From the NCBI GenBank assembly GCA_964395625.1, contig CAYNAR010000005.1, positions 6,537-70,536 of the forward strand: a stretch of 64,000 nt of DNA, given 5' to 3'. The notes under the pieces are model-generated. The model searched no databases. It saw only the letters and a list, made by a program, of their open reading frames with translations, and was not told where the DNA came from. Shown piece by piece: positions 7,721 through 52,046 of the stretch; positions within the stretch are counted from its first letter, which is position 1, and each line of letters begins with the position of its first letter. The position numbers and the translations under genes are program-made. Origin of the DNA: an uncultured Gammaproteobacteria bacterium (GTDB taxonomy: Bacteria > Patescibacteriota > Patescibacteriia > Patescibacteriales > WJLG01).

Positions 7721-7762
7721 AAAAAACCCGCCGACCTCTTCGATCGAGCGGGTGTTTTTTTA
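7721..7762. terminator. Bidirectional terminator (A-run / GC hairpin / T-run) between tRNA-Gln (+) and ankyrin gene (-)
   Basis: AAAAAA-CCCGCCGA...UCGAGCGGG-UGUUUUUUU. The stop codon of the minus-strand ankyrin gene (7760-7762) lies in the T-run. Confidence 0.6.
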
Positions 7763-11647: not shown

Positions 11648-11659
11648 TCTATTTACGGT

Positions 11660-11691
11660 CGCCTCGCTTTTATAGCGGGGCGATTTTTTTA
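11660..11691 (+). terminator. Rho-independent terminator
   Basis: CGCCUCGC-UUUUAUA-GCGGGGCG (8-bp stem with one G:U) followed by AUUUUUUU. Confidence 0.6.
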
Positions 11692-11720
11692 TTTTGATTT
11701 TTTATGATATGATTTAAAAT

Positions 11721-12853: not shown

Positions 12854-14098
12854 TTGTCATTTGGCATTGTTATAATACCGAGTATGGAAAATTTCATTAA
12901 AAATTATCCGCGTCGCATAGGTATAGACGGTCGTTTCTATGGTCCTCTAGGGAAAGGTCTTGGCAGATATATACAAGAGATTGTGGATAATATTATAAAG
13001 ATAGATCAAAAGAACGAGTATGTGGTTTTTTTGAGTAAGGAGAATTTTGACGAGCTGAAAGTAACGAGTCCGCTGGTAAAAAAGGTTTTGGCTAACGTCA
13101 AATGGTATTCCTGGCAAGAGCAGCTTCTTATGCCTTTCCTGATTTTAAAGGAGGGGGTTGATTTGATGCATTTTCCGCATTTCAACGTGCCGATATTCTG
13201 TCCTACAAAATTCGTCGTCACCATACACGATTTGATTTTGACTCGTTTTCCAACGGTTCGTGCCAGCACTTTAGCTCCTTGGTTTTACAAATTGAAGAAT
13301 TTAGCATATCAGGCGGTTATATTTTTAGCCATAAAACGTTCCGAGAAGGTTATCGCGGTTTCGAATTTTACCAAAAGCGATATTGTGGAAAAGTTTAAAA
13401 TTAAGCCCTCGAAGATAGAAGTGACATATGAAGGTGTCACTAATTTGGCGCGAGAAAACGATTCTTTGTTCGTTAAAAAAGTCGATGACAAGGATGTCCT
13501 TTTAAGGTATAATATAACTACGCAAGAAGAGCGAGATGGGGATAAATTCATTCTTTATGTCGGCAATGTCTATCCCCATAAAAATTTAGAGAGTTTGTTG
13601 TCCGTTTTTTCCGGTTTTTGCAAGAAGTATCCGAATTATAGTCTAGTTTTGGTTGGTCGCGAAGATTATTTTTACAAAAGATTGAAAGATCGAGCAAAGG
13701 AGTTGAATCTTTGGCACGATGGTAACAGTAATAATCCAGTGATTTTCCCTGGCTACGTTCCCGACAGGGACTTGGAGGTTCTATATCGGTTGGCCGATTT
13801 TTATATTTTTCCGTCGCGCTATGAAGGGTTTGGTTTGCCACCGCTCGAGGCTATGTCCAAAGGATGTCCGGTAACGAGCTCCAATCAATCTTGCCTTCCC
13901 GAGATACTAGGGGATGCGGCACTGTATTTTGACCCGGATGACAAGTCTGATATTTTTGAAAAAATGGAAAGAATGGTTAGTGATGTGGAATTAAAGGATG
14001 TTTTAAGGAAGAAGGGGTACAGACAAGTTAAGCGGTATGATTGGTGGGAATGCGCTAGGCGTACGCTTAAAATATACGAGAGTGTTTTATTAAAATAA
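12854..14098 (+). CDS. Glycosyltransferase family 4 (GT-B, GT1 superfamily)
   Basis: C-terminal 'PSRYEGFGLPPLEAMSKGCPVTSSN' is the EX7E-type GT4 motif. Confidence 0.85.
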   Translation: MSFGIVIIPSMENFIKNYPRRIGIDGRFYGPLGKGLGRYIQEIVDNIIKIDQKNEYVVFLSKENFDELKVTSPLVKKVLANVKWYSWQEQLLMPFLILKEGVDLMHFPHFNVPIFCPTKFVVTIHDLILTRFPTVRASTLAPWFYKLKNLAYQAVIFLAIKRSEKVIAVSNFTKSDIVEKFKIKPSKIEVTYEGVTNLARENDSLFVKKVDDKDVLLRYNITTQEERDGDKFILYVGNVYPHKNLESLLSVFSGFCKKYPNYSLVLVGREDYFYKRLKDRAKELNLWHDGNSNNPVIFPGYVPDRDLEVLYRLADFYIFPSRYEGFGLPPLEAMSKGCPVTSSNQSCLPEILGDAALYFDPDDKSDIFEKMERMVSDVELKDVLRKKGYRQVKRYDWWECARRTLKIYESVLLK

Positions 14099-16638: not shown

Positions 16639-16642
16639 AAAT

Positions 16643-18634: not shown

Positions 18635-18639
18635 TTTTT

Positions 18640-21600
18640 TTGTGTTATAATTTAAAAAGAAAAGTTCTCAATAAAAATTATATAAAAAATATGACAAGGA
18701 GAGTTTACTCGTTTTTTATCTATTCAGCGGTGCTGCTGTTTTGTTTTTCTTTGTTTTTAGTCAAGCCTTTTTCAAACGGGTCCGTTTCGGCTCAGGTCGG
18801 CGATGCCATAGCTGTTAGAGTCTTGCCTAATCCAAAGCATTATAGCGCCATGGATTGGTACCTTAATCAAGGCTTTAAGGGAACTCCTACGCCGATGAAG
18901 GTGGATGGCTATGACGCCGTGAAGGATGGGCGCACGGTCTATGTCAATGTGGCCAATGTCATTAATGCTTGTGAATGTTATAACGAGAGCGAGACTTGTA
19001 ATTGTACTAAGAATACTCCGATTTGTAATTCTAAGATAAATTATAATTTTACGATAATTCCTGCCAGCGCTTTTTCTTCTAATTTGACAGCGGATTGTTT
19101 TAGAGGATATATCCCTAATTATATATCTCCTGGTTCTGCCTCTGATAATCCGGCAGGAATGGAAGCCAGATTTGTTCCTAATAGCTATGTTTCTCACTGC
19201 TCGACCTCTATAGCGCCGAATATCGAGTGGAGTTCTTCATACGATACCATTCCTCCGGATTGCCCTTCCTGCCCCTATAGCTCTGTTTATGAGATGAAGA
19301 CGGTTTCCGTGAGATATACTGGCAATATAAATCTCACAGAAACGGGAAAGTGGATGTTTGGTGCGGTTTGTGACGATAATTGTGAGCTTTATATAGATGG
19401 AAGCAAGGTTATGTCTTGCTATCAGCCATCTCGCATTCCTTTAATAACGGATGATGATGCTTGTAAGGGTAGTGTTAATTTATCAAGCGGAAGCCATTCG
19501 ATTGTTTTTAGGACGGCCAATAAGACTGATGATGGCCCAATGTCGGCTAGACTTTATTGGATAACACCAAGCAATCTCGCAGCCCAAGAAGGCTCTCCGA
19601 CAGTGACTTGCACACCTAATTATACCTCTTGCCCATGTAATGGAAGTGAGGATACTAGGTCGTGTGTAACTTCACGTACTCCAGTATCTTGTAGTTCCCC
19701 TCATGATGTTACTGATTGTTCCGGAAGCACCATCTATACGAATATTTATTTGATTTCTTATAATCAGGATGCCGATCCTGGTACTTTGTCTATTTTTGAC
19801 GGAGTCCTGTCTAAATGGAGGTTCAACACTAATTTGAATATCCCCGGTAAATGTTTTAACAGTGAAAAGGAGACCGTGTCCTGTTTGGCCGATGCCGATT
19901 GCGAATCCGGTTATTTCTGTAATAGCGAAAAAGCCAAATTGGTCCGTGATGTCATAAGGCTTGGCAACATCGTCGGCATTCGCGGAAAGATAGAGAATTA
20001 TGGAAAGAAGAATGGTAGATATCCAACCCTTTCCTCTGGTTCTTATTTGCCTGGGAAAACGGTCTCCACTTGGCCTTCGTGGAACTCAGCGCTTGGCTCC
20101 GCCTTGGGTGTGGAGCTTCCAGTCGATCCCGTTAATTTCTTGGGTAGGTGTAGTAGTGATGAGGCTTTGAATGCAAAGTACGATAAAAATACTTGCTGGA
20201 GCGACTCTGACAAGTCTTTTGCCGATTCTGACACCATCGACCCCAGCTTGAATTTACCTCCAGGAAGCAGTGCGATGGTCTACGAGTCTCGTAATGATGG
20301 TTTGGAGTATAACGCCTGTGCCTATATGGAATCCGGCTATCTGGTTGATGGGGAGATGGGGGCATGTAATGGGAGCTTTAATCCGAATCAAGCTCCGGTT
20401 ATAGACTGTGGAAGTCTTAAGGCCGTCGCCGGTCAACCGTTCGAGGGGTATGTGACTGCGAGAGATTCCGATGATTCCAATGTGACGCTTACTGTTTCTT
20501 TGCCTGAATCTACAGCTGCCATCTTCTCCGTTAAGAATACGCCGAGTACGGCGATAAAACAGATTTTTGCCGCTTATATCGAGGGCGGAGTTTCTGGGAC
20601 ATATGAATTGAATGCTACAGCTAGCGATAGTCATGGAAATACTGTCAATAAAGTTTGTAGCATTAACACACAAACACAAACTTTTACGACATATCCGGTG
20701 CCAGATCAAAGGGTTTTAGTCGGCAAGGCTTTGGATTTTCAAGTTTACGCCTTTCATTCTAATAAGAATTATTCCGGTTTAACCTTTAATTTTAGCGACC
20801 CGAGATTCTCTTGTTCTTATTCGCCAACTTTGATTTCCGATGGGCGAATGCGTTGCGATGTTAGCGTGACTGCCAATGCCAGGGTGTTGCCGACACAAAT
20901 CGAGGTTCATGTTTCAAATGCCGCAGGGGAGAGGTCTCCTTCACAAACTTTCTATTTCGAGGCGTATAATAACCCCCCAGTGATCAATCCTTTGAAATGT
21001 GCCAATAAGGTCAGGGTGAGCACCCTCCCTTCTGGAGAAGCTCCTGGTCATTATAATTACGAATGCAGAGTGACAGCAACCGACCCCGATGGGCATACTG
21101 TATCTTTTCCTCCGGGATCGATAACTGGCGATTTGAGTGCCGCTGGCCTAGTTCATAGTAATGCCGGTGTTATAAGTGGATTTACTTCTGCCAATTATCC
21201 TGGTAATTATAATATAAGGATAACGGCCGTCGACTCTTATGGTGCGGTGAGCGATCCGGTGGACCTCCCTCTTAAGATAGTCGATTTTTGTGGCGATGGG
21301 GTCAAGCAGACTTTGAATATGGAAGGTAAAGGAGGTCCTAAAGACGATGGTTACGAGGATTGTGATGGTTCTGATGGCGTTCCAACACCACAACAGTCTA
21401 GCCCGACATGGCAATATGGGTGTGGCGCCGACAATTGTGCGTATTTGAACGCCGGTTATTGCGGAGATGGTGTTCTGCAGTGGACTTATGGCGAGCAATG
21501 CGACGATGGAAACAATATAGATGGTGATGGTTGCAACACTTATAACGGTGAGACCCCGTCTTGTCAATGGGAGTGCAACGACGGAACCGTTACTAACGAA

Positions 21601-22767
21601 GGTGCAATTCATGAACAGTGCGATTTCGGACATGATATCAATTGTTGTGCCTCCTGCAACTACACAACAGGCCCAACGCAGTGGGTTGAAGTTGCAGGTG
21701 GGGATTCTTTGGCTAGTGGTGAGTCTACGTCTTTGAATATTCCTAGCTGTCGCGGAGTTGTTGGCGGAACTTTTGACGCCACTCCGATGCCTTATGGTGG
21801 ATCTGCCTCGGAGGAGTCTGGTCCGGCTATAGTTTTTATAACCGATCTTTCCGGAAGTATGTTTGATTCGACGTATGCTATCACTAAAGAAGCTATTAAA
21901 GAGAGTATAAACAGATTTTACAACGAAGCCAATGCTAAAGGGATAAGCATTCATGTTGGGACAATTACGACCTATTCGGGTGGAGTTCATGATATTATTA
22001 ATATTGGGAACATGAATGATGATTACGGTGGAAGTGTTAAAAAAGGTCAGCTAGACGGCAGTGTGACTACGTATGGAGCGCGAAGTGATCAACCAGCATT
22101 TATGGCATCGTTTAATCAAGCGGCCAAGATGCTTAATGATTACGGAGCTAAAGCGGCTGATGGGGAAAAATATATAATATTTGCCACCGATGGTTGGGAT
22201 AATAGTCCAGGAAACGAGCTTACCGGTGTACAGGCTATAAAAGACTCGGGAATAAAAATTTATATGGAGACCTTTAACAATTGGACAGCTGGTTTTAATA
22301 ATGGTTCTTTGAATATTAGTTCTTGTAGTTTGAATTTATGCTATTCACTACAGGATATTTGTAAATGGTCCAGTGATAATGGCGATTTCAATCTTTGTTT
22401 TAAAAATATCAACGTCGACGACTCTATTAACGCATCTTATAATGGTTATTGCTATTACGTTGGCAATAAGACGGCCGCCAACCCTCCCAGTGCGGCAGTC
22501 GTTCAGAGTCGTTTAGCTGCAATAAACACAAGAGTGGTGAATTTGATTTTGACTCGCATACCAAGCAATATAACTTACGCGGTCAATGGAGTCTCCAATC
22601 CCTTGTCTTCTTATAAAGATTCTCCTTTTACGCCTCCTAATCCTTGTGATATTTCCGGCTCCGGTTGTTCGCCATCGGTCTTTAATTTCTCCACGGCTTT
22701 TACTGGCAGTGGCGAGATGAACTATAGTAATTTTAAATTGAACATAATACCGCTTTGTAGTGAATAA
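18640..22767 (+). CDS. Giant (1375 aa) secreted Cys-rich surface protein: signal peptide, PA14-like, pseudopilin-like motif, Ig-like repeats, Myxococcus-type cysteine-rich repeats, vWA/MIDAS domain
   Basis: Signal peptide 'MTRRVYSFFIYSAVLLFCFSLFLV'. PA14-like 'GKWMFGAVCDDNCELYIDGSKV...ARLYW'. 'NGRYPTLSSG...LPVDPVNF' resembles the GspG/pseudopilin core. 'CGDGVLQWTYGEQCDDGNNIDGDGCNTY' is a cysteine-rich-repeat signature. 'AIVFITDLSGSMFDS...IIFATDGWDN' is a vWA MIDAS (DxSxS...T...D). More than 70 Cys. Confidence 0.85.
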   Translation: MCYNLKRKVLNKNYIKNMTRRVYSFFIYSAVLLFCFSLFLVKPFSNGSVSAQVGDAIAVRVLPNPKHYSAMDWYLNQGFKGTPTPMKVDGYDAVKDGRTVYVNVANVINACECYNESETCNCTKNTPICNSKINYNFTIIPASAFSSNLTADCFRGYIPNYISPGSASDNPAGMEARFVPNSYVSHCSTSIAPNIEWSSSYDTIPPDCPSCPYSSVYEMKTVSVRYTGNINLTETGKWMFGAVCDDNCELYIDGSKVMSCYQPSRIPLITDDDACKGSVNLSSGSHSIVFRTANKTDDGPMSARLYWITPSNLAAQEGSPTVTCTPNYTSCPCNGSEDTRSCVTSRTPVSCSSPHDVTDCSGSTIYTNIYLISYNQDADPGTLSIFDGVLSKWRFNTNLNIPGKCFNSEKETVSCLADADCESGYFCNSEKAKLVRDVIRLGNIVGIRGKIENYGKKNGRYPTLSSGSYLPGKTVSTWPSWNSALGSALGVELPVDPVNFLGRCSSDEALNAKYDKNTCWSDSDKSFADSDTIDPSLNLPPGSSAMVYESRNDGLEYNACAYMESGYLVDGEMGACNGSFNPNQAPVIDCGSLKAVAGQPFEGYVTARDSDDSNVTLTVSLPESTAAIFSVKNTPSTAIKQIFAAYIEGGVSGTYELNATASDSHGNTVNKVCSINTQTQTFTTYPVPDQRVLVGKALDFQVYAFHSNKNYSGLTFNFSDPRFSCSYSPTLISDGRMRCDVSVTANARVLPTQIEVHVSNAAGERSPSQTFYFEAYNNPPVINPLKCANKVRVSTLPSGEAPGHYNYECRVTATDPDGHTVSFPPGSITGDLSAAGLVHSNAGVISGFTSANYPGNYNIRITAVDSYGAVSDPVDLPLKIVDFCGDGVKQTLNMEGKGGPKDDGYEDCDGSDGVPTPQQSSPTWQYGCGADNCAYLNAGYCGDGVLQWTYGEQCDDGNNIDGDGCNTYNGETPSCQWECNDGTVTNEGAIHEQCDFGHDINCCASCNYTTGPTQWVEVAGGDSLASGESTSLNIPSCRGVVGGTFDATPMPYGGSASEESGPAIVFITDLSGSMFDSTYAITKEAIKESINRFYNEANAKGISIHVGTITTYSGGVHDIINIGNMNDDYGGSVKKGQLDGSVTTYGARSDQPAFMASFNQAAKMLNDYGAKAADGEKYIIFATDGWDNSPGNELTGVQAIKDSGIKIYMETFNNWTAGFNNGSLNISSCSLNLCYSLQDICKWSSDNGDFNLCFKNINVDDSINASYNGYCYYVGNKTAANPPSAAVVQSRLAAINTRVVNLILTRIPSNITYAVNGVSNPLSSYKDSPFTPPNPCDISGSGCSPSVFNFSTAFTGSGEMNYSNFKLNIIPLCSE

Positions 22768-36865: not shown

Positions 36866-36897
36866 AAAAAAACACCGGCTAGTGCCGGTGTTTTTTT
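36866..36897. terminator. Bidirectional terminator between the histidine kinase (+) and clpB (-)
   Basis: AAAAAAA-CACCGGC-UAGU-GCCGGUG-UUUUUUU. The clpB stop codon sits in the T-run. Confidence 0.65.
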
Positions 36898-39565
36898 AAT
36901 TCTTAACGCTTAGGACGACTTTATTCTCTAGTCCGAGATCGATTGACACTTTTGATCCTTCTTTAATCTTTCCCTCTATTATTTCCAGCGACAGTTCATC
37001 GAGTATTTTGCTCTGTATAAGTCTTTTGAGTGGTCTGGCTCCAAAGGTTATATCATAGCCCTCGTTGGCCAGCATCTTTTTCATCTTAGGGCTTATTTTT
37101 AGGACGATGTCTTTATTCCTTAGTCTGCTTTGAACCTTGGAAAGCTCTAGGTCGACTATGTTTTCCAAAGACTCTTTGTCGAGCGCTCTGAAAACCACTA
37201 TTTCGTCGATACGGTTCAAGAATTCCAGTTTGAAGTATTCTCTTAATTTGCCGTCTATTTGATTTTTCATCTCCTTGAAATCGTTTTCTTTGGCATTTTG
37301 GCCCTCGTTGTCTTTGAAGCCTATGGAGAATTTTTTGATTATCTCATTACCAAGATTCGAAGTCATTATTATGACGGTGTTCTTGAAATTTACGGTTCTA
37401 CCCTTGGAGTCGGTCAAGCGTCCATCGTCCAATAATTGCAGTAAGATGTTGAACACTTCCGGGTCGGCTTTCTCTACTTCATCGAAAAGTATTACGCTAT
37501 ATGGGCGTCGACGTATCTTTTCTGTCAATTGTCCGCCGTCGTCATGCCCGACATAACCCGGAGGTGAGCCGATTAGCTTGGCTACGCTATGTTTCTCCAT
37601 GTATTCGCTCATATCCACTCTGATCAAGGAATTTTCGTCGTCGAACAGGAAAGAGGCTAGTGATTTGGCTAGCTGCGTTTTTCCGACGCCGGTCGGGCCT
37701 ACGAATAAGAACGAGCCTATTGGTCTTCCTTCCTCGCCAATGCCTGCGCGAGAACGACGTATCGCATTAGCGATCGAATGTATGGCATCGTTTTGACCGA
37801 TGACTTTTTTCTTCAATTCTTCTTCCATGTGCGAAAGCTTGCTGATTTCGCTTTCCATCATTTTGGATACAGGAACACCTGTCCAGCGAGAGACTACTTT
37901 TGCGATGTCCTCGGCGTCTATCTCTTCTTTAAGGATGGATTGTCCTTTTTTCTGGATTTCCGATAATTCTTTTTCGGCTTTTTTGACTTGTTTTTCCAGT
38001 TCAGGAATTTGTCCGTAACGTATTTCCGCCACCTTCATTAAGTCGTCACCGCGTCTTTCGGCTATTTCCGATTGTATCTTTAGTTCGTCTATCTGCCTCT
38101 TGGATTGCCTTATTTTGGCGATGGCGTCTTTTTCATTCCGCCAATGCAATTCTAATTGATTCGCTTTTTCTTTCAGCTCTTCCAGTTTTTTATTTAATTC
38201 TTTTTCCGAGAAGTCGTTCTTCTTGTCTTTGAATCCGCCCATTTTTATTATCTCTAGGCGGCGAATCTCTTTTTTCATTTTTTCCAAATCTTCCGGAGTC
38301 GAGTCGACTTCCATGCGCAAGGCGGAAGTGGCTTCGTCGATCAGGTCGATGGCCTTGTCGGGAAGGAAACGATCGGATATATAACGACTGGAAAGTTTTA
38401 CGGCCGATATTAAAGCTTCATCGGTGATGCGTATGCCGTGATGTATTTCGTATTTTTCTTTAATGCCACGTAAAATATCCACTGTATCCTCCTCAGTTGG
38501 TTCGGCGACATAGACCGGCTGGAAACGACGTTCCAAGGCGGCATCTTTCTCGATGTATTTTTGATATTCTTTGGTGGTCGTAGCTCCTATGGTGCGTATT
38601 TTACCGCGAGCCAAGGCCGGTTTTAACATATTGGAAGCGTCCATAGCCCCCTCACTGGCACCGGCACCGACGATAGTGTGCAATTCATCGACGAACAATA
38701 TGATATTACCATCTTGAGATTCGATCTCTTTCAGGACGGCCTTCAGTCTTTCTTCGAACTCGCCACGGAATTTGGCACCGGCGATCAATGCGCCAAGATC
38801 AAGCGATACTAGTTTGCGGTTGCGTAAATTCTCCGGAACGTCATTGGCTATGATACGTTGCGCCAAGCCTTCCACGATGGCCGTTTTTCCTGTTCCGGCG
38901 TCTCCGATGAGGACAGGGTTGTTTTTTGTGCGTCTGAGTAAGACCTGCATTATCCTTCTGATTTCTGAATCGCGACCGATTACGGGGTCCAGTTTTTTTT
39001 GTTTGGCCAGCTCCGTCAAATCAACGGTGTATTTTTCCAAGACGCGATATCTTACCTCCGGATCCGGATCGGTTATCGTTTTATTTCCTCTTAATTCCGT
39101 TAAGATTTTAGCGACTTGCTCGTATTCCACGCCATACTTGTTCAATACTTCCTTGGCTATGGATTTTACATTGAGAATGGATAGGAAGATGTGCTCGGTG
39201 GAGATGAATTCATCCTTCATTTTGTCCGCTTCTTTTTTTGACCCCTCCAATACGAAAGCAGCCTCAGCGGTTCCTGACACTGTGCCTACATTGCCATTAT
39301 TAAAGGGGGAGTGGTTGTTTATTTGCGGTTTTGCCGGATTCTTTTTGGCCGTCTTTTCCAATTCATCTAAAATTTCTTCATGTATATCTTCGGGGTCTAT
39401 AGCCATTTTTTCGAGAATCGGTTTCACCAAGCTCTCGTCTTGCTCCAAAAGGGAGCAGAGGAGGTGGGAGGCCTCGATATTTACTTGCCCGTATTCTTGG
39501 GCTATTATTTGAGCATTTATTATAGCTTCCTGAGACTTTGTAGTGAATTTATTGAACATATTCAT
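36896..39565 (-). CDS. clpB: ATP-dependent chaperone ClpB (Hsp100 disaggregase)
   Basis: Clp N-domain, two AAA+ modules (Walker A 'GDAGTGKTA' and 'GPTGVGKTQ') separated by a long coiled-coil M-domain. 889 aa. Confidence 0.95.
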
Positions 39566-40102: not shown

Positions 40103-41347
40103 ATGACAAAAGAAGATAAGTCGTTTATAATTAAAATGATGGAAAAAATAACTATTTTAGGGATAAAAATAGACAATATTGATAGGAATGGTGTTGTCGG
40201 CGAAATCGATCGCCTGCTTAATGGCGGGCAACATTTAGTTTTTACCCCTAATCCGGAGATAATATTAGAGGCTAGTAAGGATGAAGAGTTATTCTATATA
40301 TTAAATCAAGCCGATTTATCACTTCCGGATGGTTTTGGGTTGAAAGTAGCGGCTTTCCTGTGTGGTAAAAAGATAGCTAGGGTTTCCGGTTCGGATGTGG
40401 TTGTCGATTTATTGCAGAAGTGCGAAAAAAGTTTAATTCCCGTCGGTTTTGTTATTTGGGAGAATGGGCTGTCCACTAAACAGGATGTCGTAGATGGTGT
40501 AAGTAGGAAGTATCCGAAACTGGAGTTTAAAGTTCAAGTAGGTGGTCGTTCTAATAATTTTGAGCCGAATGAGGAGTTCTTGTCGATCAATCCTGGTGTC
40601 GTATTTTTTGCTCTGGGCTGTCCTTGGCAAGAAAAAAACGCCTATCATTCGATATCTAAGATAGGCTCAGCTAAGGTTTTAATGGGCGTTGGGGGAGCGA
40701 TCGACTTTATATCCGATAAAGTGCGAAGAGCCCCGAAATTCATGCGCTATTGTGGATTAGAGTGGCTATGGAGATTAATTTTGAATCCTGGGAGGGTGAA
40801 AAGGATTTTTAACGCGGTAGTCGTTTTTACTTGGCGCGTTCTTGAAAGCCGGTTCATTCAACCATTTTTGTATCGTTCTTGTGTGTCTTGTCTTTTATAT
40901 AAAAGAAACAGCTCTGGAAAATACGACATCCTTGTTGTTGAAAGACAGGGCGAGCTTGGGCATTGGCAGCTTCCGCAAGGAGGAACCGATGGCGAGGAAA
41001 TTCTTAAAGCGGGGGAGAGGGAATTGCGAGAAGAGCTTAATACTGATAGGATAATTCCCAAACGCGTCTTTAAGCATCTGTATCGCTATAAATTCGGTGT
41101 TGGCGTCGGTATCAAAAAGAATGAAAAAAACGGACGAAATCGTCACATGGGTTACAAAGGGCAAAGATTGGGTTTGTTTATAGGCGAGTTCGTCGGTTGC
41201 GACGAGGATATAAAGGTGAATTTTTGGGATCACTCGGCTTGGAAGTGGGTAGATTCCGAAGACTTGGTTAATCAGGTGCATTTAGTTAGGCGAAGATCGG
41301 CTGAGATTTTTTTGAAAAAATTCAAAGAATTTGTTAAGAAAAAATAA
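40103..41347 (+). CDS. Fusion protein: WecB/TagA/CpsF-family glycosyltransferase (GT26) N-terminal domain plus C-terminal NUDIX hydrolase
   Basis: N-terminal 'ILGIKIDNIDRNGVVGEIDRLL...LVFTPNPEIILEA' is GT26-like. C-terminal 'LPQGGTDGEEILKAGERELREELN' is a complete Nudix box GX5EX7REUXEEXGU. Confidence 0.7.
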   Translation: MTKEDKSFIIKMMEKITILGIKIDNIDRNGVVGEIDRLLNGGQHLVFTPNPEIILEASKDEELFYILNQADLSLPDGFGLKVAAFLCGKKIARVSGSDVVVDLLQKCEKSLIPVGFVIWENGLSTKQDVVDGVSRKYPKLEFKVQVGGRSNNFEPNEEFLSINPGVVFFALGCPWQEKNAYHSISKIGSAKVLMGVGGAIDFISDKVRRAPKFMRYCGLEWLWRLILNPGRVKRIFNAVVVFTWRVLESRFIQPFLYRSCVSCLLYKRNSSGKYDILVVERQGELGHWQLPQGGTDGEEILKAGERELREELNTDRIIPKRVFKHLYRYKFGVGVGIKKNEKNGRNRHMGYKGQRLGLFIGEFVGCDEDIKVNFWDHSAWKWVDSEDLVNQVHLVRRRSAEIFLKKFKEFVKKK

Positions 41348-44638: not shown

Positions 44639-44733
44639 TCCCTGTTTTGCTGAAGGATGGTTTTTCCGAGAATGATTTTATCGTTCTCGGATTTTTATTT
44701 TATTTATAAAAATGATATACTATCGGTATAGTT

Positions 44734-45101: not shown

Positions 45102-47846
45102 ATGGAGGAAATTAAGGATAAAATCGAATTCGTGAACTGTGACGAATGTAACGGCACTGGTTTTTCTGACAAGAAAAAAGTTTGCAATAATTGTCACGGA
45201 CAAGGCCTTGGGGCTTTTTTTCTTGGTAATTTTTTGTATTGCAAATCCAGTATCGACAGGGAGAGTATCTCTTCGCGGGCTATGCGAAAGAGGATTATTT
45301 CCGCCATTGATGTTATCTCCTATATCTTTTTTGTCGTCGGCATAGGCTCTATTTTTTTCTATTTGATAAAGAACGATGTTGTTAGTAATTCTCGCTGGAC
45401 GGATGTCTTACAAGACAAGAGTATTTTTATTTTATTTTTCTATTTTTCCTGTCTGTCTTTTTCTTTCTTGATCTATAGAAATAGTCAAAAAAGGCAAGAG
45501 AGGGAAAAGATAAAGAAGCTTCATGAGAGCGAGACTTTTCCGGATAATTGGGGTGATTTGCGCAAATACAAAAGAAGCGTCGAAGTTTTGTCGATGTGCA
45601 ATGAAAACACTTTTCATCTATTGGAGTGTTCTTACCTTTTGGCACGTCGTCTTAAAAATAAGGAAATCAGAGCTCTTCATGTTTTTTCGGTATTTATAGA
45701 AAAGTCCGTGGAAGTAAAATCCCTCCTATTTCGTTTAAATGTCGATTTGTCCGCAATTAAGGAGAAAATCGATAATCAACTTTCTTTGCTTGAGAAAGAT
45801 CTTGTTTCTGGTGAAAATGTCGAATTCGGCTTATCGACCAAGGAAGTTTTAATAGAATCTTTTATAGACGCTTATAATAACAAACAAAAAGACATAAAGG
45901 CATTGAATGTTTTTTCTTTTTGTTTTGAAAAGGAGTCTATAATAAAGGAGATTCTCCTTGATTTTAAAGTCAATGAGAACAAGATAAAAAACACGATAAC
46001 TTGGTTTCGTATAAACGATAAACAGATAGAGAATTATAAGCTGTATAAAAAATTAGCACATTATAAGCCGTCGTCTTCGATGGATCGCGCTTACACTGCG
46101 GTAGCAACTCCTTTTTTGAATAATTTCGGCTATGATTTGACCTTGGCCGCCAAGTGGGGGCGTCTTGATGTTTGTGTCGGCAGGGACAAGGAAATAAGAA
46201 GTATTTTTGAAGCTTTAGAAGGTGGTAGCGCCGGAGCCCTACTTACTGGCCCAGATGGAGTTGGTAAGCGCTCCGTTATTAATGGTATTGCCAGGGAGAT
46301 GGTTATGGAGGAGGATATTCCTATGATTTTGAAAGATAAGCGACTCATTGAGTTGGATGTCGCAAGATTAGTTTCTGGCGCTTCGCCGACTGTCGCCCAA
46401 GAAAGGATGTTGACCATAATAGATGAGATAAATCGTGCCGGCAATATCGTTCTTTTTCTTGAGAACCTTGAAAATATCGTCGGCATAGCAGCGGGAGGTG
46501 AGGAGAGTTTAGAGCTTTCGGAAGTTCTTTCCGGAGAGTTGGATAGAGGGGCTCTGCTTTGTTTTGCCACAGTCTCGGAAAGTAATTATATAAAGTATAT
46601 AGACAATAAGGCTATTGGAAATGTTTTTGCCAGGATAAAGATAGGCGAGCCGGTCGGAGATCAAGCTATGATGATGTTAGAAAGCAAAATAGGATATATA
46701 GAGGCAAAACACGGCGTATTTTTCTCTTATAACGCGGTAGAGGCGGCAAGGGATCTTTCCGTTAAATTCATCCATGATAAATACCTTCCGACTAAAGCAG
46801 TCGATATTCTGGAAAAGACAGCCGCTCGTCTTAGTAGTAGAAAGAAAGGCGAGACCGTGGTCTGCGATCGCAACGATATCGCCTTGACCATAAATCAGAT
46901 GACCGACATTCCGGTACAGGACTTGGAGGAGGGTGAAGGCGAGAAATTATTAAATCTGGAAGAGGAGATGCATAAGTACATGATCGGTCAGCACGAAGCC
47001 GTGCAAATGGTAGCCGACGCTTTGCGTCGTTCTCGAGCGGAACTGCGTTCAGGAAATAGACCGATAGCTAATTTTTTATTCCTTGGTCCGACCGGTGTCG
47101 GTAAGACGGAATTGGCTAAAACTATAACTAGGGTTTATTTTCAAAAAAAGGACTTCATGATTCGTCTTGATATGAGTGAATATCAGCACGAGGACAGTGT
47201 TAAAAAGATGATTGGCGATGTCGACGGTGTTCAAGGGTATTTGACTGAGTCTGTCCGCCAGAAGCCTTTTTCTCTTGTTCTGCTTGACGAATTCGAGAAG
47301 GCTAATCCCAAGATATTCAACCTTTTTTTGCAAGTAATGGATGATGGACGTCTCACTGACGGCCAAGGAAGAACGATTGATTTTACAAATAGCATAATAA
47401 TAGCTACCTCCAATGCTGGTTCTGATTATGTGCAGGAACAGGTTCGAAATAATGTGCCAATGGAACAAATAAAGGAAGTTTTGATAAATGATCATCTATC
47501 AAAGGTGATGAGGCCGGAGTTGGTGAATCGTTTTGACGGAATAATCATATTCAAACCGTTAACCGAGAGTGATATTGAACAAATAGCTGGTTTAATGTTA
47601 AAAGATATAAAATCACTTCTCGAGGAGAAGGGCGTCGGTTTGGAAGTTTCACCAAGTGGTCTTAGTGTTTTGGCGGCTGCCGGATATGATCCCAAATTCG
47701 GTGCACGCCCATTGCGTCGCCTGATCCAAGAGAAAGTAGAGAATGAGATCGCTAAGAAACTTCTTTCCGGCGAAATAAAGAGGCGCGATGTGGTCTTTAT
47801 AGACGACGCGGCCGAGATAGTAGTTAAAAAAGGAATGGAGCTTTAA
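45102..47846 (+). CDS. Membrane-anchored Clp/Hsp100-family AAA+ ATPase with N-terminal DnaJ-type zinc finger and degenerate first Walker A
   Basis: N-terminal 'CDECNGTG...CNNCHGQG' (two CxxCxGxG repeats) then two TM helices. Clp-N-like repeats. D1 'LLTGPDGVGKRS' (Walker A Thr/Ser replaced by Arg). D2 '[18 protein letters not shown]' intact. No long M-domain and no IG[FL] ClpP loop. Confidence 0.8.
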   Translation: MEEIKDKIEFVNCDECNGTGFSDKKKVCNNCHGQGLGAFFLGNFLYCKSSIDRESISSRAMRKRIISAIDVISYIFFVVGIGSIFFYLIKNDVVSNSRWTDVLQDKSIFILFFYFSCLSFSFLIYRNSQKRQEREKIKKLHESETFPDNWGDLRKYKRSVEVLSMCNENTFHLLECSYLLARRLKNKEIRALHVFSVFIEKSVEVKSLLFRLNVDLSAIKEKIDNQLSLLEKDLVSGENVEFGLSTKEVLIESFIDAYNNKQKDIKALNVFSFCFEKESIIKEILLDFKVNENKIKNTITWFRINDKQIENYKLYKKLAHYKPSSSMDRAYTAVATPFLNNFGYDLTLAAKWGRLDVCVGRDKEIRSIFEALEGGSAGALLTGPDGVGKRSVINGIAREMVMEEDIPMILKDKRLIELDVARLVSGASPTVAQERMLTIIDEINRAGNIVLFLENLENIVGIAAGGEESLELSEVLSGELDRGALLCFATVSESNYIKYIDNKAIGNVFARIKIGEPVGDQAMMMLESKIGYIEAKHGVFFSYNAVEAARDLSVKFIHDKYLPTKAVDILEKTAARLSSRKKGETVVCDRNDIALTINQMTDIPVQDLEEGEGEKLLNLEEEMHKYMIGQHEAVQMVADALRRSRAELRSGNRPIANFLFLGPTGVGKTELAKTITRVYFQKKDFMIRLDMSEYQHEDSVKKMIGDVDGVQGYLTESVRQKPFSLVLLDEFEKANPKIFNLFLQVMDDGRLTDGQGRTIDFTNSIIIATSNAGSDYVQEQVRNNVPMEQIKEVLINDHLSKVMRPELVNRFDGIIIFKPLTESDIEQIAGLMLKDIKSLLEEKGVGLEVSPSGLSVLAAAGYDPKFGARPLRRLIQEKVENEIAKKLLSGEIKRRDVVFIDDAAEIVVKKGMEL

Positions 47847-47849
47847 AAA

Positions 47850-48875
47850 ATGTTTCAATATATCGCAATTTGTCTAGTCGCTTTTTCTTTGTCTTTATTG
47901 TTTACACTTATAATTGAGAAAGTAGCTTGGAAGTTTAAGGCGCTTGATTATCCATCAGCAAGAAAGATACATGTCGGTCCAACACCCCTTTTGGGTGGAG
48001 TGGCTGTTTTTTGTTCTTTCTTTGTATCGATATTTCTTTTTAAAAACAACCTTTTGGTTGGTGATCTTGGTGCATGGAATTGGGTTTGGTTTTTTGCCGG
48101 TGGTGTTTTCTTAATTATTGGTGGTGTTTGGGATGATTTTAAGAATCTACCACCATCCAAACAGCTTGTGTTTCCGTGTTTAGCCGTAATTTGCGTTTTG
48201 ATTGGTGATATAGGCATCGAAAAAATAGGCAATCCTTTTGGCGGACTGCTTTTTTTTAATAGTGTTTTATCCGATGTCCTTACTGTCGTTTGGTTGATGT
48301 TGATGATGTATACGACAAAACTATTGGATGGGGTCGACGGATTAGTGACGGGCGTGTCGGTCATTGGCGGTTTTACTATCTTTTTATTCACTGCAACCAC
48401 TAAGTATAGCCAGCCGGATATAGCATTGGCCTCGATTGCTTTAGCTGGGGCCGGTATTGGTTTTTTGATTCGTAACTGGAATCCGGCTAAGATTTTTCTT
48501 GGCGAATCTGGTTCATTGTTTTTTGGTTATTCATTGGGTGTCCTGTCTATAATATCTGGTGGTAAGATAGCTATCGCTTTGCTTGTTCTCGGATTACCTT
48601 TATTAGATGTCGTTTGGACGATATTAAGAAGGTTGTTAGCTGGCAATAATCCATTCAAGGCTTCTGACAAGAAGCACTTGCACCATCGTTTTATGGAGTT
48701 GGGTCTTTCTCAAAGAAAGACAGCCTTGCTGTTTTATTTTGTTTCCGCCTTTTTCGGTTTGAGTGGTTTATTTTTGCAGAGTCTGGGAAAGCTGGCGGCT
48801 GTTTCAGCCCTATTTTTATTAATGGCTGTTTTTGTTGTTTTCTTTTCGATACATGAGAGGAAAAAAAAATCTTAA
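47850..48875 (+). CDS. MraY/WecA-family polyprenyl-phosphate N-acetylhexosamine-1-phosphate transferase
   Basis: 10-11 TM helices. 'DDFKNLPPSKQL' and 'LDGVDGL' are conserved MraY/WecA cytoplasmic-loop motifs. Confidence 0.85.
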   Translation: MFQYIAICLVAFSLSLLFTLIIEKVAWKFKALDYPSARKIHVGPTPLLGGVAVFCSFFVSIFLFKNNLLVGDLGAWNWVWFFAGGVFLIIGGVWDDFKNLPPSKQLVFPCLAVICVLIGDIGIEKIGNPFGGLLFFNSVLSDVLTVVWLMLMMYTTKLLDGVDGLVTGVSVIGGFTIFLFTATTKYSQPDIALASIALAGAGIGFLIRNWNPAKIFLGESGSLFFGYSLGVLSIISGGKIAIALLVLGLPLLDVVWTILRRLLAGNNPFKASDKKHLHHRFMELGLSQRKTALLFYFVSAFFGLSGLFLQSLGKLAAVSALFLLMAVFVVFFSIHERKKKS

Positions 48876-48876
48876 T

Positions 48877-49788
48877 ATGAGAAAAAGACTATATATTTTT
48901 ATTTTAATTTGCTGGTTAGTTGGAATATTTTCCCTCATGCTCGTTCCTATGCCACCAGTTCCGGATGTTGTCAAAAAGATAACTCTCTATGATAAAGGGG
49001 CTCATCTTATCTTTTTTTCAGTGACTAATTTTTTATTATTGACGATTATTTACAGATTTAAAAAATTCAATTTTTTCATATCGGCGGTTTTGGCATCCTT
49101 CATCTCTTTGGCCTTAGCTTTTTTGGCGGAGGAGATGCAAACCTTTATTCCGGGAAGAGAAAATTCCTCTTTGGATTTTTTGGCCGGAGCCATAGGAGTG
49201 GCTATTTCTTGTCCAATAGCCTACGTGTTCAATCATGATCCGAGAAAGAGATTGGCTCTTCATGTCTGCTGTGCGCCTTGCACTACGGCCGTCTATGAGG
49301 ATTTATCCAAAGAATACAATATCGAATTCTTTTTTTCCAATGCCAATATTTTTCCAAAGAGCGAGTATGAAAAGAGACTTAGGGAGGTTAAAAAGCTTGG
49401 TAAGATATTCAACGTTAGGGTTGTAGAGGATAGGTATTCTCATAAGGCGTGGAGGAAGTTTATTTCCGGAATGGAAAACGATAAGGAGGGCGGTAGTCGT
49501 TGCGATCATTGTTTTTCTTTTAGGTTGAGTAGGGTGGCTGCAAAGGCGAAGAGTATGGGTTTTAGCATGTTTGCCACAACTTTAAGTATTAGTCCTCATA
49601 AAAATACTGAAAAAATAAATAGATGCGGCAGGGAGGCTGGCGAAAGATACGGCATGAGTTTCTTAGGTTATGACTTCAAAGAGAACGATGGTTTTAAAAG
49701 GTCCATCGTTTTGTCAAAGAATTTTGGCTTATATAGGCAAAAATATTGTGGGTGTGAATTTTCTATGCCAGATAGGGTTAAAATTTGA
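48877..49788 (+). CDS. queH: Fusion: VanZ-like membrane domain plus epoxyqueuosine reductase QueH (DUF208)
   Basis: N-terminal ~130 aa with 3-4 TM helices (VanZ-like). C-terminal 'LHVCCAPC...FFFSNANIFPKSEYEKR...CDHCFSFR...YCGCE' matches QueH Cys motifs. Start at ATG 48877. Confidence 0.75.
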   Translation: MRKRLYIFILICWLVGIFSLMLVPMPPVPDVVKKITLYDKGAHLIFFSVTNFLLLTIIYRFKKFNFFISAVLASFISLALAFLAEEMQTFIPGRENSSLDFLAGAIGVAISCPIAYVFNHDPRKRLALHVCCAPCTTAVYEDLSKEYNIEFFFSNANIFPKSEYEKRLREVKKLGKIFNVRVVEDRYSHKAWRKFISGMENDKEGGSRCDHCFSFRLSRVAAKAKSMGFSMFATTLSISPHKNTEKINRCGREAGERYGMSFLGYDFKENDGFKRSIVLSKNFGLYRQKYCGCEFSMPDRVKI

Positions 49789-49820: not shown

Positions 49821-50147
49821 ATGACTAAAGAAAAATGGAGTAGTATTTTAGGTAATGTTTTGGACAATTTTGACGTCTTGGAGCATGAGAAGGGTTTCAT
49901 CGAAGAAGAGGGTGGAATAGATTTGGAATACGTGGTTTTTAATGGTCCGATCGGCAAAATGAGGCTTGAATTTGTCGAGAAGCCGGTGGTATTGGGAAAG
50001 AAGACTAATTATTCCAATAGAATAGGTTCTGAAACTGCAGTGGAGTATGTATATAGCGATAGCGAAAAAACATCGCGTCTTATGGCCTACAAATGGAGTG
50101 ATGAGGATGATGATTGGGTTGAAGTAAGCGAGAAAAGCTTCCAGTGA
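49821..50147 (+). CDS. Hypothetical protein (108 aa)
   Basis: ORF only. Acidic C-terminus. Confidence 0.4.
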   Translation: MTKEKWSSILGNVLDNFDVLEHEKGFIEEEGGIDLEYVVFNGPIGKMRLEFVEKPVVLGKKTNYSNRIGSETAVEYVYSDSEKTSRLMAYKWSDEDDDWVEVSEKSFQ

Positions 50148-50148
50148 T

Positions 50149-50892
50149 ATGAAAAAAAGTTTGTTTTTATTGTTTTTGACGCCGATTTTCGTCTTATTAC
50201 TATTAGAGGTTTTTTGTTTTAAGCCGGAATTGTCGTATTTGCCTTTTTTCGTTCTAACTGTTCTAATGGCGTTTGTCGTAAAAAAAATGATTGGTGGGAG
50301 TTTTTTTTCGTGGGAATATGTTGCCACCCTGGGATTCCCTTTAATGTTTATATTTTTTTCGGCAGCATATTCGATGCTGACTCCATTAGCCGTAATAAGA
50401 CAAGCAGTTTTTGGTCTAGTAATGATTTTTACCTTTCTTTATTTAAGGAATATTAGCAAAGAAGATAAGAGTGTATTCATTGAGAATATTTTTTCGTATG
50501 CCGGTTTTCTGTTGGTATTTTTCGCATTTTCATTTTTTTACGGATTAAGGGTTTTTCTTGGAACGTCTATAGTTTTACTGGTATGCCTAATTATGGGCTT
50601 GGTCGTATTGGTGATTTTGAATGTTTTTTGGGCAAATAGAATTGCGATAAAAAACTCGATGATTTATATTTTTTTAATTTCTTTGTTAATGACTCAAATA
50701 GCTTGGTCTCTTTATTTTCTATCCTTATCGTATAGCTATCTGGGGTTGATATTGGCCATGTGCTATTATATGGTTATCGGAGTGGTTAAGCCTTATTTGA
50801 GGGATTCACTAACTAAAAAAACAGTTATAGTATATTTGACTTGCGGAGTATCTGGCATAATGATTGTCATTTTTTCCGCCCAATGGTTATGA
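50149..50892 (+). CDS. Hypothetical polytopic membrane protein (about 8 TM)
   Basis: Highly hydrophobic 247-aa ORF. Its stop overlaps the next start (ATGA). Confidence 0.5.
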   Translation: MKKSLFLLFLTPIFVLLLLEVFCFKPELSYLPFFVLTVLMAFVVKKMIGGSFFSWEYVATLGFPLMFIFFSAAYSMLTPLAVIRQAVFGLVMIFTFLYLRNISKEDKSVFIENIFSYAGFLLVFFAFSFFYGLRVFLGTSIVLLVCLIMGLVVLVILNVFWANRIAIKNSMIYIFLISLLMTQIAWSLYFLSLSYSYLGLILAMCYYMVIGVVKPYLRDSLTKKTVIVYLTCGVSGIMIVIFSAQWL

Positions 50893-52046
50893 TAAATAAA
50901 AAAATGCCAACATGGATGATGCTATCATTAATGGTTTTGCTTTGTTTAGCCGCTGGTGTAACCGGCTCTTTATTGGTGAGAGCATATTTGCCAAGTGGAC
51001 AAGTGAATTCATTGAGTAGCGACTTGAATATATCAAGGGATAGTTTGAAGAGAGCTAATTTGATAATAGAAAATGCAAAAAAAATAGTTGTTGAGCAGGA
51101 TAGTAAAGTCAAAGAGACAGTCTCGTCTGGCAGAAATAGTATTGTTGGCGTATTTAAAAAGAAAAAAGAGGTGAGCGCCTCATCCGAAAAGAACTCCTTC
51201 TTGATTAATGACTATTATCATATGAACGGAGAGGAGACCGAGGGGCTTATAGTCACTAGCGATGGCTGGATTATCGCACCAAATCCGGAAAAGGGTCTTA
51301 GTGTTGACGAGTTGATAAAAAATTATGTCGTTGTCACTAAATCAAAAGATGTCTATTCTATCGACAGAGTAGAAAAGGCGGGGGTCGAGCCATATATTTT
51401 CATGCACCTTTCTTCCGTTAAAGATTTGCCGGTGAAACAGCTGGCTTCAAATGATTTATTATCCGATGGGCAGATGTTGGTTGCGGTCAATTGGGAGGGG
51501 AAGAGCTATGTGACTTCGCTTTTTGAAAAAAACAAACAAAGTTTCTATTACGAATCCAGTGATTCGCTTTCTGACAAGATTGTGCTTTCCGATAATTTAA
51601 ACAGCTTCTTTCAGACGGCTTTCGTTTTTAGTCTTAATGGCGAAGTGGTGGCGATATACGATCAAGGATCGGGTGTTACTTCGATGGGTTTATTTTTGCC
51701 GTTCATAAAAGGATTATTGGAAAATAGTGATTTTAAATACCCATCTCTTGGTTTTAATTATGTCGACCTTGGCTCATTGGTCACTAAAGACTCTAGGTAT
51801 GAAAAGGGCGCTATGATTATTTCTGATGGCAAGAGACCAGCTTTGGAAGTCGACAGTGCCGCAGCTGAAGCAGGCTTAAGGGAGGGTGATATAATTTTGT
51901 CGATCAATGGCGCTTCTGTGAATTCTGAAAATCATTTGTCTGCTCTACTGCAAAAATATCAAGCTGGCGATAGTGTGAGCTTGATTTATTTGAGAGAAGG
52001 GCAAGAGAGGAAAGTTGACGTTAAATTAAAAGAGTTGAAAAAATAA
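50889..52046 (+). CDS. Membrane-anchored PDZ-domain protein
   Basis: N-terminal TM (MMLSLMVLLCLAAGVTGSLLV). C-terminal 'GLREGDIILSINGASVNSENHLSALLQKYQAGDSVSLIYLREGQE' is a PDZ fold signature. No S1 protease triad. Confidence 0.55.
   Translation: MINKKMPTWMMLSLMVLLCLAAGVTGSLLVRAYLPSGQVNSLSSDLNISRDSLKRANLIIENAKKIVVEQDSKVKETVSSGRNSIVGVFKKKKEVSASSEKNSFLINDYYHMNGEETEGLIVTSDGWIIAPNPEKGLSVDELIKNYVVVTKSKDVYSIDRVEKAGVEPYIFMHLSSVKDLPVKQLASNDLLSDGQMLVAVNWEGKSYVTSLFEKNKQSFYYESSDSLSDKIVLSDNLNSFFQTAFVFSLNGEVVAIYDQGSGVTSMGLFLPFIKGLLENSDFKYPSLGFNYVDLGSLVTKDSRYEKGAMIISDGKRPALEVDSAAAEAGLREGDIILSINGASVNSENHLSALLQKYQAGDSVSLIYLREGQERKVDVKLKELKK

Follow-up and report, generated by a model that had tools for sequence, protein, structure and literature searches.

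The protein encoded at 45102..47846 in a 64,000-nucleotide stretch of contig CAYNAR010000005.1 (positions 6,537 to 70,536; here called the window) appears, judged by its sequence, to be a Clp/Hsp100 ATPase of a kind not described before, which would remodel proteins and is predicted to be anchored in the membrane. At its N-terminus is a single zinc ribbon, in which the CxxCxGxG motif occurs twice; a membrane hairpin of two helices, a domain resembling Clp_N, and the AAA+ rings D1 and D2 follow in this order. This architecture, which a preliminary description of the DNA had proposed, holds for the protein and for its family according to Pfam matches, motif tallies, homologue alignments, and a model from AlphaFold2. 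The family is likely to represent a membrane-integral Hsp100 subfamily specific to Patescibacteria, whose N-terminal module lies outside all curated models. No description of the family was found in the searchable literature on Patescibacteria and Hsp100/Clp proteins, including the genetics paper PMC10633639.

By domain criteria, the protein is classified as a two-ring (class-I) Hsp100/Clp AAA+ ATPase. Its Pfam matches are AAA_2 at amino acids (aa) 653-812 (173.8 bits), ClpB_D2-small at aa 820-898 (85.6 bits), and AAA_lid_9 at aa 520-588 (45.7 bits), and all 52 scanned family members match the same three models. The match to Clp_N (PF02861) is marginal in the query (20.5 bits against a cut-off of 20.7), and this domain is matched at E<=0.01 in 37 of the 52 members, the best at 9.9e-9. 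The comparison by hhalign of the family profile with the ClpB-type protein encoded upstream in the window gave a probability of 100%, with the N-domain, D1, and D2 all aligned. The N-domain aligns with aa 5-163 of that ClpB, and also with ClpA from residue 12. The AlphaFold2 model of the full protein has a mean predicted local distance difference test score (pLDDT) of 83.8 and a predicted template modelling score (pTM) of 0.73. Foldseek with this model indicated ClpC structures as the top matches and also found ClpB structures. The most closely related proteins whose structures have been solved are ClpB of T. thermophilus (437 bits) and of E. coli (417 bits), followed by B. subtilis ClpC (~408 bits), ClpE (398 bits), and ClpA (305 bits), the last in a single stretch covering aa 176-892.

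The preliminary description had remarked that a long M-domain and a ClpP-docking loop are absent, and both absences extend to the family. In 119 members, the D1 small domain and the D2 Walker A are 99-102 aa apart; in the neighbouring ClpB, the corresponding distance is 222 aa. In the hhalign alignment, ~130 residues of the ClpB M-domain face gaps, and an insert, KP..MDRAYTAVATP, precedes D1. The ClpP-docking tripeptide [ILVM]G[FLM] was found in none of the 119 members in the 40-aa segment between the D2 sensor 1 and the arginine finger.

It had also been stated that the protein is unlike characterised Clp proteins. Its placement relative to ClpA, ClpB, ClpC, and others is based on hidden Markov model scores, which are far under every NCBIfam equivalog cut-off. 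An identity as ClpB was rejected on the scores (538.4 against 1232.1 for TIGR03346 and 454.1 against 1417 for PRK10865) and on the missing M-domain and pore tyrosines. An identity as ClpA was rejected likewise (448.6 against 993 for TIGR02639 and 339 against 1350 for PRK11034), as were ClpG/ClpK (ClpK 431.6, ClpG 423 against 1900) and ClpV/TssH (398.6 against 885). A role as a ClpP partner of the ClpA, ClpC, ClpE, or ClpX kind was rejected because the docking loop is absent in 119 of 119 members. An FtsH-type membrane AAA+ protease was also considered; the transmembrane (TM) anchor is present, but Pfam detects no peptidase domain and two Clp-type rings. An anti-phage defence ATPase was discarded as well, as the PADLOC models DolB and PDC-M37B match only partially (116 and 113 bits; aa ~553-782), reflecting generic D2 similarity.

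The ring motifs were compared with ClpB structures and tallied over 119 close homologues. The arginine in the D1 Walker A and the intact D2 Walker A, both pointed out in the preliminary description, are confirmed, and D1 is more degenerate than had been described. In D1, the residue after the GxxGxGK of the Walker A is K, R, N, or D (R390 in the query), and T or S does not occur there. The D1 pore loop, SGA[TS][PA][AS]x, contains no Tyr and is one residue shorter than in ClpB. The D1 Walker B is hhhh[E/D/N][N/D], and the catalytic Glu is never there. The arginine-finger pair is N/R-A/V against RR in ClpB. Column identity in the homologue alignment averages 0.69 in D1 (0.77 in D2 and 0.59 in the N-domain) despite the loss of the catalytic residues. 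D1 is thus well conserved and apparently not decaying, and it is likely to keep a non-catalytic role. In the wider family of 83 sequences, some members have GKT in D1, and the DE pair of the D1 Walker B is seen in only one.

D2 appears catalytically complete. The Walker A, the Walker B LLDE, sensor 1 (N771), the arginine finger (R810), and sensor 2 (GARPLRR) are all invariant. Its pore loop is shortened in addition: GAPPGYVGYEEGG of ClpB is replaced by GDVDGVQG. The loop-tip positions 707, 710, and 711 are variable in the family, and G705, G712, and Y713 are fixed or nearly so; AlphaFold2 puts Y713 in the first turn of the helix after the pore loop. The secondary pore loop D2' (MSEYQH.DSVKKMIG) is strongly conserved. 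A few distant members of the wider family keep a GAPPGY pore loop, suggesting that the short loop is derived. In ClpB, Y653 and V654 grip the substrate, the Y653A mutant is strongly defective, and Y251 is the D1 pore tyrosine (PMC6546751).

The N-terminal zinc ribbon contains the repeats CDECNGTG (aa 13-20) and CNNCHGQG (aa 28-35), spaced as CxxCxGxG-x7-CxxCxGxG. C13, C16, C28, and C31 are invariant among 64 aligned homologues. The two repeats would make one zinc centre, not two. CxxCxGxG repeats of DnaJ bind zinc, and in several plant plastid proteins the motif, beside a TM anchor, aids the assembly of membrane complexes. The DnaJ cysteine-rich domain has four repeats and two zinc centres, whereas the query has two repeats, a single putative centre, and no J-domain. 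The Pfam model of that domain, PF00684, scores 17.6 bits against a cut-off of 32.7 and is covered at positions 1-26 of 65; the likeness seems to be at the motif level only. ClpE resembles the query in having a zinc-binding element ahead of the rings, but the query motif is CxxCxGxG twice, not the C4 type of ClpX and ClpE, and no Pfam match to the ClpX-type zinc domain was found in the query at E<=0.01. The N1 domain of ClpG is not a zinc domain in the ClpG papers checked, where the word "zinc" does not occur.

Two TM helices had been proposed after the zinc ribbon, and the data agree with them. Kyte-Doolittle hydropathy has maxima of 2.37 at aa 63-90 and 2.02 at aa 107-125. AlphaFold2 predicts beta-strands at aa 10-46 and long helices at aa 53-90 and 108-134 with a short helix between them. 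Among 119 close homologues, the 16 residues before TM helix 1 contain on average 3.7 K+R and 0.6 D+E, and the 16 residues after TM helix 2 contain 5.9 K+R and 2.7 D+E. These flanks are thus each net about +3, and the 16-aa loop joining the helices is neutral. By the positive-inside rule, this charge pattern fits a hairpin with both ends inside, in which the zinc ribbon and the ATPase would both be cytoplasmic.

The N-terminal extension is unlikely to originate from a mis-called start. The ATG at 45102 is favoured by homologues of 911-918 aa, which align from residue ~9 (consensus QFI.CP.C.G.G). The other possible starts, TTG at 45009 and GTG at 45042, lie solely upstream and each overlaps the preceding gene; no choice of start codon would thus take away the zinc finger. 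The preliminary description had raised the objection that the true start might lie past the zinc-finger region; this is contradicted by the conservation of the extension with its four invariant cysteines, and a start-site artefact was rejected because conservation among homologues already begins ahead of the first Cys. The public gene call (P0001, 934 aa) uses GTG 45042, which is 20 codons earlier and gives a 55-nucleotide (nt) overlap with the small gene upstream. The sequence GGAGG is present at 45104-45108, just inside the open reading frame, and a clear Shine-Dalgarno sequence before ATG 45102 was not found.

A search of 5.8 billion clustered proteins recovered at least 120 clusters at 90% identity, which are 48-77% identical to the query. 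Nearly all of these are 904-945 aa long, and their length and motifs are steady over more than 100 species. In public annotation they are labelled "ClpA", "ClpC", or "AAA family ATPase". A search with only the first 340 aa matched 213 clusters (50% identity) at E<=1e-3 and 132 at E<=1e-10 among 1.84 billion representatives; the fusion of zinc finger and TM helices, for which a search of other genomes had been suggested, is found well beyond this genome. All named members are Patescibacteria (Parcubacteria group, Falkowbacteria, and Uhrbacteria); the distant ones with names are from Uhrbacteria, Falkowbacteria, and the "Patescibacteria group". A pattern scan of GTDB species representatives, built from 7 sequences, confirmed 108 loci, of which 80 were kept. 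The record titles of many name Falkowbacteria, Parcubacteria, or Patescibacteria. Many other loci (L007, L008, L011, L017, L018, L020, L021, and others), which have the same neighbouring genes, are in records titled "uncultured Gammaproteobacteria bacterium". For this Patescibacteria-type locus, such titles appear to be placeholders or wrong taxonomy.

One clade of the family is without D2. It comprises ten 50%-identity clusters (P0177, P0180, P0185, P0204, P0219, P0234, P0241, P0244, P0261, and P0262) of 588-631 aa, ending in VPYTKILK at the junction between D1 and D2. The four Cys, the TM hairpin, and the N-domain are retained in these proteins, as are the motifs PNNW and AVATP; D1 is present as well but has degenerated further. 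In the two available contigs with such a gene (L088:848-2668 and L089:1470-3272), the next gene is Glycos_transf_4, and a small-protein gene is not called directly upstream in either. A metagenome scan aimed at this clade found 3 loci, one of them already known.

The Clp-like gene is flanked by the same two genes in nearly all species-representative loci (Table 1). The preliminary description had paired it with the small membrane protein encoded upstream, and this pairing is conserved: among the species-representative loci with enough flanking sequence, the small gene is upstream in 60 of 62, with a median gap of ~16 nt and frequent overlap. A WecA-like gene of the Glycos_transf_4 family (GT4) is downstream in 51 of 53 such loci, in about half of them within 100 nt. 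In the window, 5 nt separate the small gene from the Clp-like gene and 3 nt separate the latter from the GT4 gene. The outer flanks differ by lineage and include glutamyl-tRNA synthetase, CTP synthase with L27, and inserted ABC transporter or radical-SAM genes. The three-gene core thus persists amid changing surroundings.

The small protein has 19 invariant positions over 25 sequences of ~120 aa. It has no match in Pfam, NCBIfam, or PADLOC, and the GT4 protein likewise has no PADLOC match. The structure model of the small protein is confident and all-helical (pLDDT 88), and Foldseek found no significant fold match for it in the PDB (best E 4.8). The GT4 protein scores 138.8 bits with the WecA model TIGR02380 and 58.5 bits with mraY, both under the cut-off. 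It is classed as a polyprenyl-phosphate N-acetylhexosamine-1-phosphate (HexNAc-1-P) transferase rather than MraY. On the upstream side, asnS ends at 44638, and the terminator-like hairpin that follows it would mark the end of the upstream transcription unit. The VanZ-QueH gene probably ends the tightly packed part of the unit. In more distant relatives, the VanZ-like membrane domain and the epoxyqueuosine reductase QueH are encoded by separate adjacent genes (for example, L001:11312-11593 and 11574-12119).

In one case, the link between the Clp-like protein and the transferase is a fusion. P0247 (1231 aa; L087:4001-7696) is a distant Clp-like relative in frame with GT4. It shares 24% identity with the query in the N-terminal region and is preceded by a homologue of the small protein (L087:3607-3990, 37% identity). 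The GT4 part begins at the DxPxxRKxH segment, past the usual first TM helix of GT4. On the usual WecA topology, this segment is cytoplasmic, and the fusion would therefore be topologically consistent.

Table 1. Features of the Clp-like gene and its transcription unit in the window (positions are those of the window).
Feature	Position	Strand	Basis or remark
Terminator-like hairpin, 12-bp stem then T-run	44665..44691	+	after asnS; consensus scan only
Promoter-like site TTTATA-18-TATAGT	44703..44732	+	just before small gene; consensus scan only, 9/12 matches
Small membrane protein, 120 aa	44734..45096	+	invariant FP-WWYS-GL and VWIKNIFVPMYGQ motifs; hydrophobic C-terminal half
Hsp100/Clp-like ATPase, predicted membrane-anchored	45102..47846	+	914 aa plus stop; stop-free translation
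N-terminal zinc ribbon, aa 10-46	45129..45239	+	CxxCxGxG at aa 13-20 and 28-35; four invariant Cys; weak PF00684
Predicted TM helix 1, aa ~63-90	45288..45371	+	hydropathy, AlphaFold2, charge bias
Predicted short extracytoplasmic loop, aa 91-106	45372..45419	+	net neutral; conserved FW motif
Predicted TM helix 2, aa 107-125	45420..45476	+	hydropathy, AlphaFold2, charge bias
Clp_N-like helical N-domain, aa ~164-320	45591..46061	+	Pfam, hhalign, family scan, AlphaFold2
Family-specific linker KP..MDRAYTAVATP.LN.F	46062..46127	+	highly conserved; absent from ClpB
D1, degenerate AAA+ module (putative pseudo-ATPase ring) plus AAA_lid_9	46128..46901	+	Pfam, motif tallies
D1 Walker A GPDGVGKRS	46248..46274	+	R390 in place of Thr/Ser
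D1 pore loop SGASPTV	46374..46394	+	ClpB AGAKYRGE; Tyr and flanking basic residues lost, one-residue deletion
D1 Walker B VLFLEN	46449..46466	+	ClpB ILFIDE; catalytic Glu to Asn
D1 arginine-finger positions N507-V508	46620..46625	+	RR in ClpB
D2, catalytically complete AAA+ module (AAA_2) plus ClpB_D2-small	46935..47843	+	Pfam, motif tallies
D2 Walker A	47085..47111	+	invariant
D2 pore loop GDVDGVQGY	47214..47240	+	5 residues shorter than ClpB GAPPGYVGYEEGGY (E. coli); Tyr-Val absent
D2 Walker B LVLLDE	47274..47291	+	D729, E730 invariant
WecA/TagO-like polyprenyl-phosphate N-acetylglucosamine-1-phosphate (GlcNAc-1-P) transferase (GT4)	47850..48875	+	starts 3 nt past Clp-like stop
VanZ-QueH fusion gene	48832..49788	+	overlaps GT4 end

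The reading that we favour, tentatively and at somewhat less than even confidence, is that the protein is a D2-driven, membrane-tethered remodeller which acts independently of ClpP and DnaK and is coupled to the small protein and the WecA-like GT4. A hexameric two-ring Hsp100 would be permanently tethered on the cytoplasmic face of the membrane by its N-terminal helical hairpin. The twelve helices of the hexamer would pin its entry face there, and the zinc ribbon and the Clp_N-like domain would lie between the membrane and the rings. D1, in which the Walker A Lys remains but the Thr that binds Mg, the arginine fingers, the pore Tyr, and the catalytic Glu are gone, may be a non-hydrolysing ring for assembly or regulation, and D2 would be the sole motor. 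The absence of the M-domain and of the ClpP loop suggests that it works without coupling to DnaK and without ClpP. As the N-terminal substrate-entry face would be pinned to the membrane, the clients are expected to be membrane-embedded or membrane-associated. From the operon and the fusion, the foremost candidates for partners or clients are the small protein and the WecA-like enzyme. The 120-aa membrane protein, presumably co-transcribed, may act alongside as an adaptor, anchor, or client, and the transferase, which would start an envelope glycopolymer, may be remodelled, extracted, or controlled, alone or in a complex.

Characterised AAA+ proteins resemble the query in separate respects. ClpB/Hsp104 has the same layout of N-domain, D1, D2, and D2-small, identical D2 motifs, and no ClpP loop. 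The query differs from it in having a predicted membrane anchor, a zinc ribbon, and a dead D1, and in lacking both pore tyrosines (the equivalents of Y251 and Y653) and the M-domain; the last of these suggests that it is without Hsp70 coupling. ClpA shares with the query two rings, an N-domain, the lack of a long coiled coil, and an alignment in one stretch. The query is unlike ClpA, ClpC, and ClpE in its TM hairpin, its dead D1, and the absence of the IGL/VGF docking loop.

Dead rings and single active rings are known elsewhere. In NSF, p97/Cdc48, and Pex1/Pex6, a non-hydrolysing ring holds the hexamer together and a single ring is active. They differ from the query in belonging to another AAA+ clade and in being soluble. 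The dead ring of NSF is D2, whereas in p97 the non-hydrolysing ring is D1, as proposed for the query. Skd3, which is human CLPB, keeps the canonical pore-loop tyrosine. Two papers on this Hsp100 relative (PMC7343390 and PMC9934407) indicate that, like the query, it has a single active ring of the ClpB-D2 type and an N-terminal region that is not canonical, and that it does not depend on Hsp70 or ClpP. Unlike the query, Skd3 has ankyrin repeats and no D1, and its mature form is not an integral membrane protein.

Several points weigh against the favoured reading. Neither pore loop has its canonical tyrosine, and in the short D2 loop the residues at the tip are variable; processive threading is therefore not assured. 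The TM helices and their topology are predictions from hydropathy, charge bias, and the AlphaFold2 model. The fusion of the Clp-like protein with GT4 comes from a single metagenome-assembled genome and may be an assembly or frameshift artefact, and genes in streamlined genomes may stay in the same order through inertia. In the D2-less clade, the membrane module and the dead D1 remain and GT4 is still the neighbour, which indicates that part of the family role is independent of the D2 motor.

These points bear on the main alternative, itself rather unlikely, of a scaffold or ATP switch without threading. Here, the membrane module, the N-domain, and D1 would form a platform that organises or regulates GT4 together with the small protein, and D2 would be a nucleotide switch. 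The loss of the aromatic-hydrophobic (Ar-Phi) pore motif from D2 and of the Tyr from D1, together with the variable loop tip, speaks for such a protein, and the D2-less proteins, with GT4 directly next to them, and the natural fusion with GT4 point in the same direction. However, every catalytic and inter-subunit signalling residue of D2 is invariant, including the arginine finger and sensor 2. The D2' loop and Y713, at the start of the pore-proximal helix, are strongly conserved, as expected for a working translocase, and the canonical GAPPGY loop is still seen in some distant members. A specific form of this alternative is doubtful. In it, a threading-free membrane Hsp100 with the 120-aa protein as a subunit would serve the polyprenyl-phosphate GlcNAc-1-P transferase, by which lipid carrier is committed to the envelope glycopolymer in Patescibacteria, as a regulator or a scaffold gated by ATP. 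If it were true, the D2-less clade would be a motor-free end-state of the same complex, and the protein would represent a new functional class for Clp/Hsp100 and a lineage-specific control point of envelope biogenesis in ultra-small bacteria.

The preliminary interpretation as a whole is partly supported. Its structural points are borne out, and the function that it suggested, extraction or quality control of membrane proteins, would be the most natural reading by geometry, as the substrate-entry face would be held at the membrane like in FtsH and Msp1. The missing pore tyrosines, the D2-less clade, and the WecA-like partner complicate this reading. In FtsH and Msp1/ATAD1, N-terminal TM helices anchor the ring so that its entry face is turned to the membrane, and the presumed clients are membrane proteins. 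FtsH and Msp1 are single-ring AAA proteins of the classical clade with aromatic pore loops, and FtsH has its own protease, whereas the query is a predicted two-ring Hsp100 without a protease and without the canonical pore aromatics; the likeness would be one of geometry, not of homologous anchors. FtsH is treated as a membrane-anchored AAA+ machine in PMC7949044. A general membrane-proximal extractase or disaggregase, which would be a protease-free analogue of FtsH/Msp1 not specially tied to the glycosyltransferase, ranks third and is unlikely. Several features are consistent with it: a ring anchored at its N-terminus, a Clp_N domain and a zinc motif like that of DnaJ, which both bind substrates in other chaperones, the intact D2, and the fact that the genome also encodes a soluble second paralogue of the ClpB/C kind. 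Yet a protease-free machine offers no obvious fate for extracted proteins, the pore-loop aromatics are lost, and the lasting linkage to one enzyme gene and to a small partner of its own suggests that the role is specific. The WecA-like transferase is the most persistent partner after the small protein, including the fusion, which likewise suggests a role more specific than general quality control.

Finally, an ordinary ClpP unfoldase of the ClpA/ClpC type with a mis-called N-terminus, or a decaying duplicate of one, is very improbable: the public labels ("ATP-dependent Clp protease ATP-binding subunit ClpA/ClpC") and the best full-length single-stretch NCBIfam alignment, which is to ClpA, would agree with it, but all equivalog scores fall far short (ClpA 448 against 993, ClpB 538 against 1232), the docking tripeptide is found in 0 of 119 members, the N-terminal extension shows conservation, its Cys being invariant, and the stable length and motifs over more than 100 species argue against a pseudogene or a start-site artefact.

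The window contains other genes of note. The protein at 36896..39565 (minus strand), 5.5 kb upstream, had been taken for a canonical ClpB, beside which the Clp-like protein would be a second Hsp100. The presence of a paralogue stands, but it is not strictly canonical. It is a ClpB/ClpC hybrid, with a full-length ClpB-type M-domain (~aa 413-545) and a ClpC-type IGF docking loop (aa ~743-755; SIGFKD, in a 49-aa segment) that aligns with the LGF loops of ClpC1 from M. tuberculosis and Streptomyces. For its D2 fragment, the best matches in the PDB are chains of ClpC1. It scores 1189 with the NCBIfam ClpB model, just short of the cut-off of 1232. The D1 pore loop contains Phe (AKFRG). No genes for ClpP or ClpX were seen within the 64-kb window.

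A glycosyltransferase of the WecG/TagA family fused with a NUDIX hydrolase domain is encoded at 40103..41347 (plus strand). This fusion gene recurs upstream in the loci L034, L065, L071, L078, and L080. Together with the WecA-like gene, it would place both early steps of a linkage-unit-type glycopolymer pathway near the Clp-like gene. Three further genes after the unit (49821..52046, plus strand) are conserved in close relatives: orf108, orf247, and a gene for a 401-aa protein. The products of orf108 and orf247 have no family match in the window, and a weak DUF5656 match is on record in L005. The 401-aa protein is matched in NCBIfam solely by the PDZ-containing C-terminal part (aa ~287-400) of HtrA/DegP-type models, with the protease domain unmatched. 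At a distance, an ankyrin-repeat protein of 340 aa is encoded at 7760..8782 (minus strand), and very large probable surface proteins are encoded at 14098..22767 (plus strand) near several glycosyltransferase genes. They are 846 aa (DUF4012), 663 aa (DUF11), and 1375 aa (weak PA14 and VWA) long.

Few protein machines have been studied as well as the Hsp100/Clp ATPases, and, to our knowledge, every characterised bacterial member is soluble. A conserved integral-membrane Hsp100 would widen the known roles of the family, with a naturally "trapped" D1, a remodelled D2 pore, and a dedicated small membrane partner. It would be a natural experiment on how much of the canonical pore loop a D2 motor needs and on what a dead D1 ring adds. 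Hardly any Patescibacteria have been cultured, and no function has been assigned to the majority of their conserved membrane proteins. The protein may point to a lineage-specific proteostasis of the envelope or membrane in Patescibacteria, and its tight link with a WecA-like initiating transferase provides a concrete and testable hypothesis.

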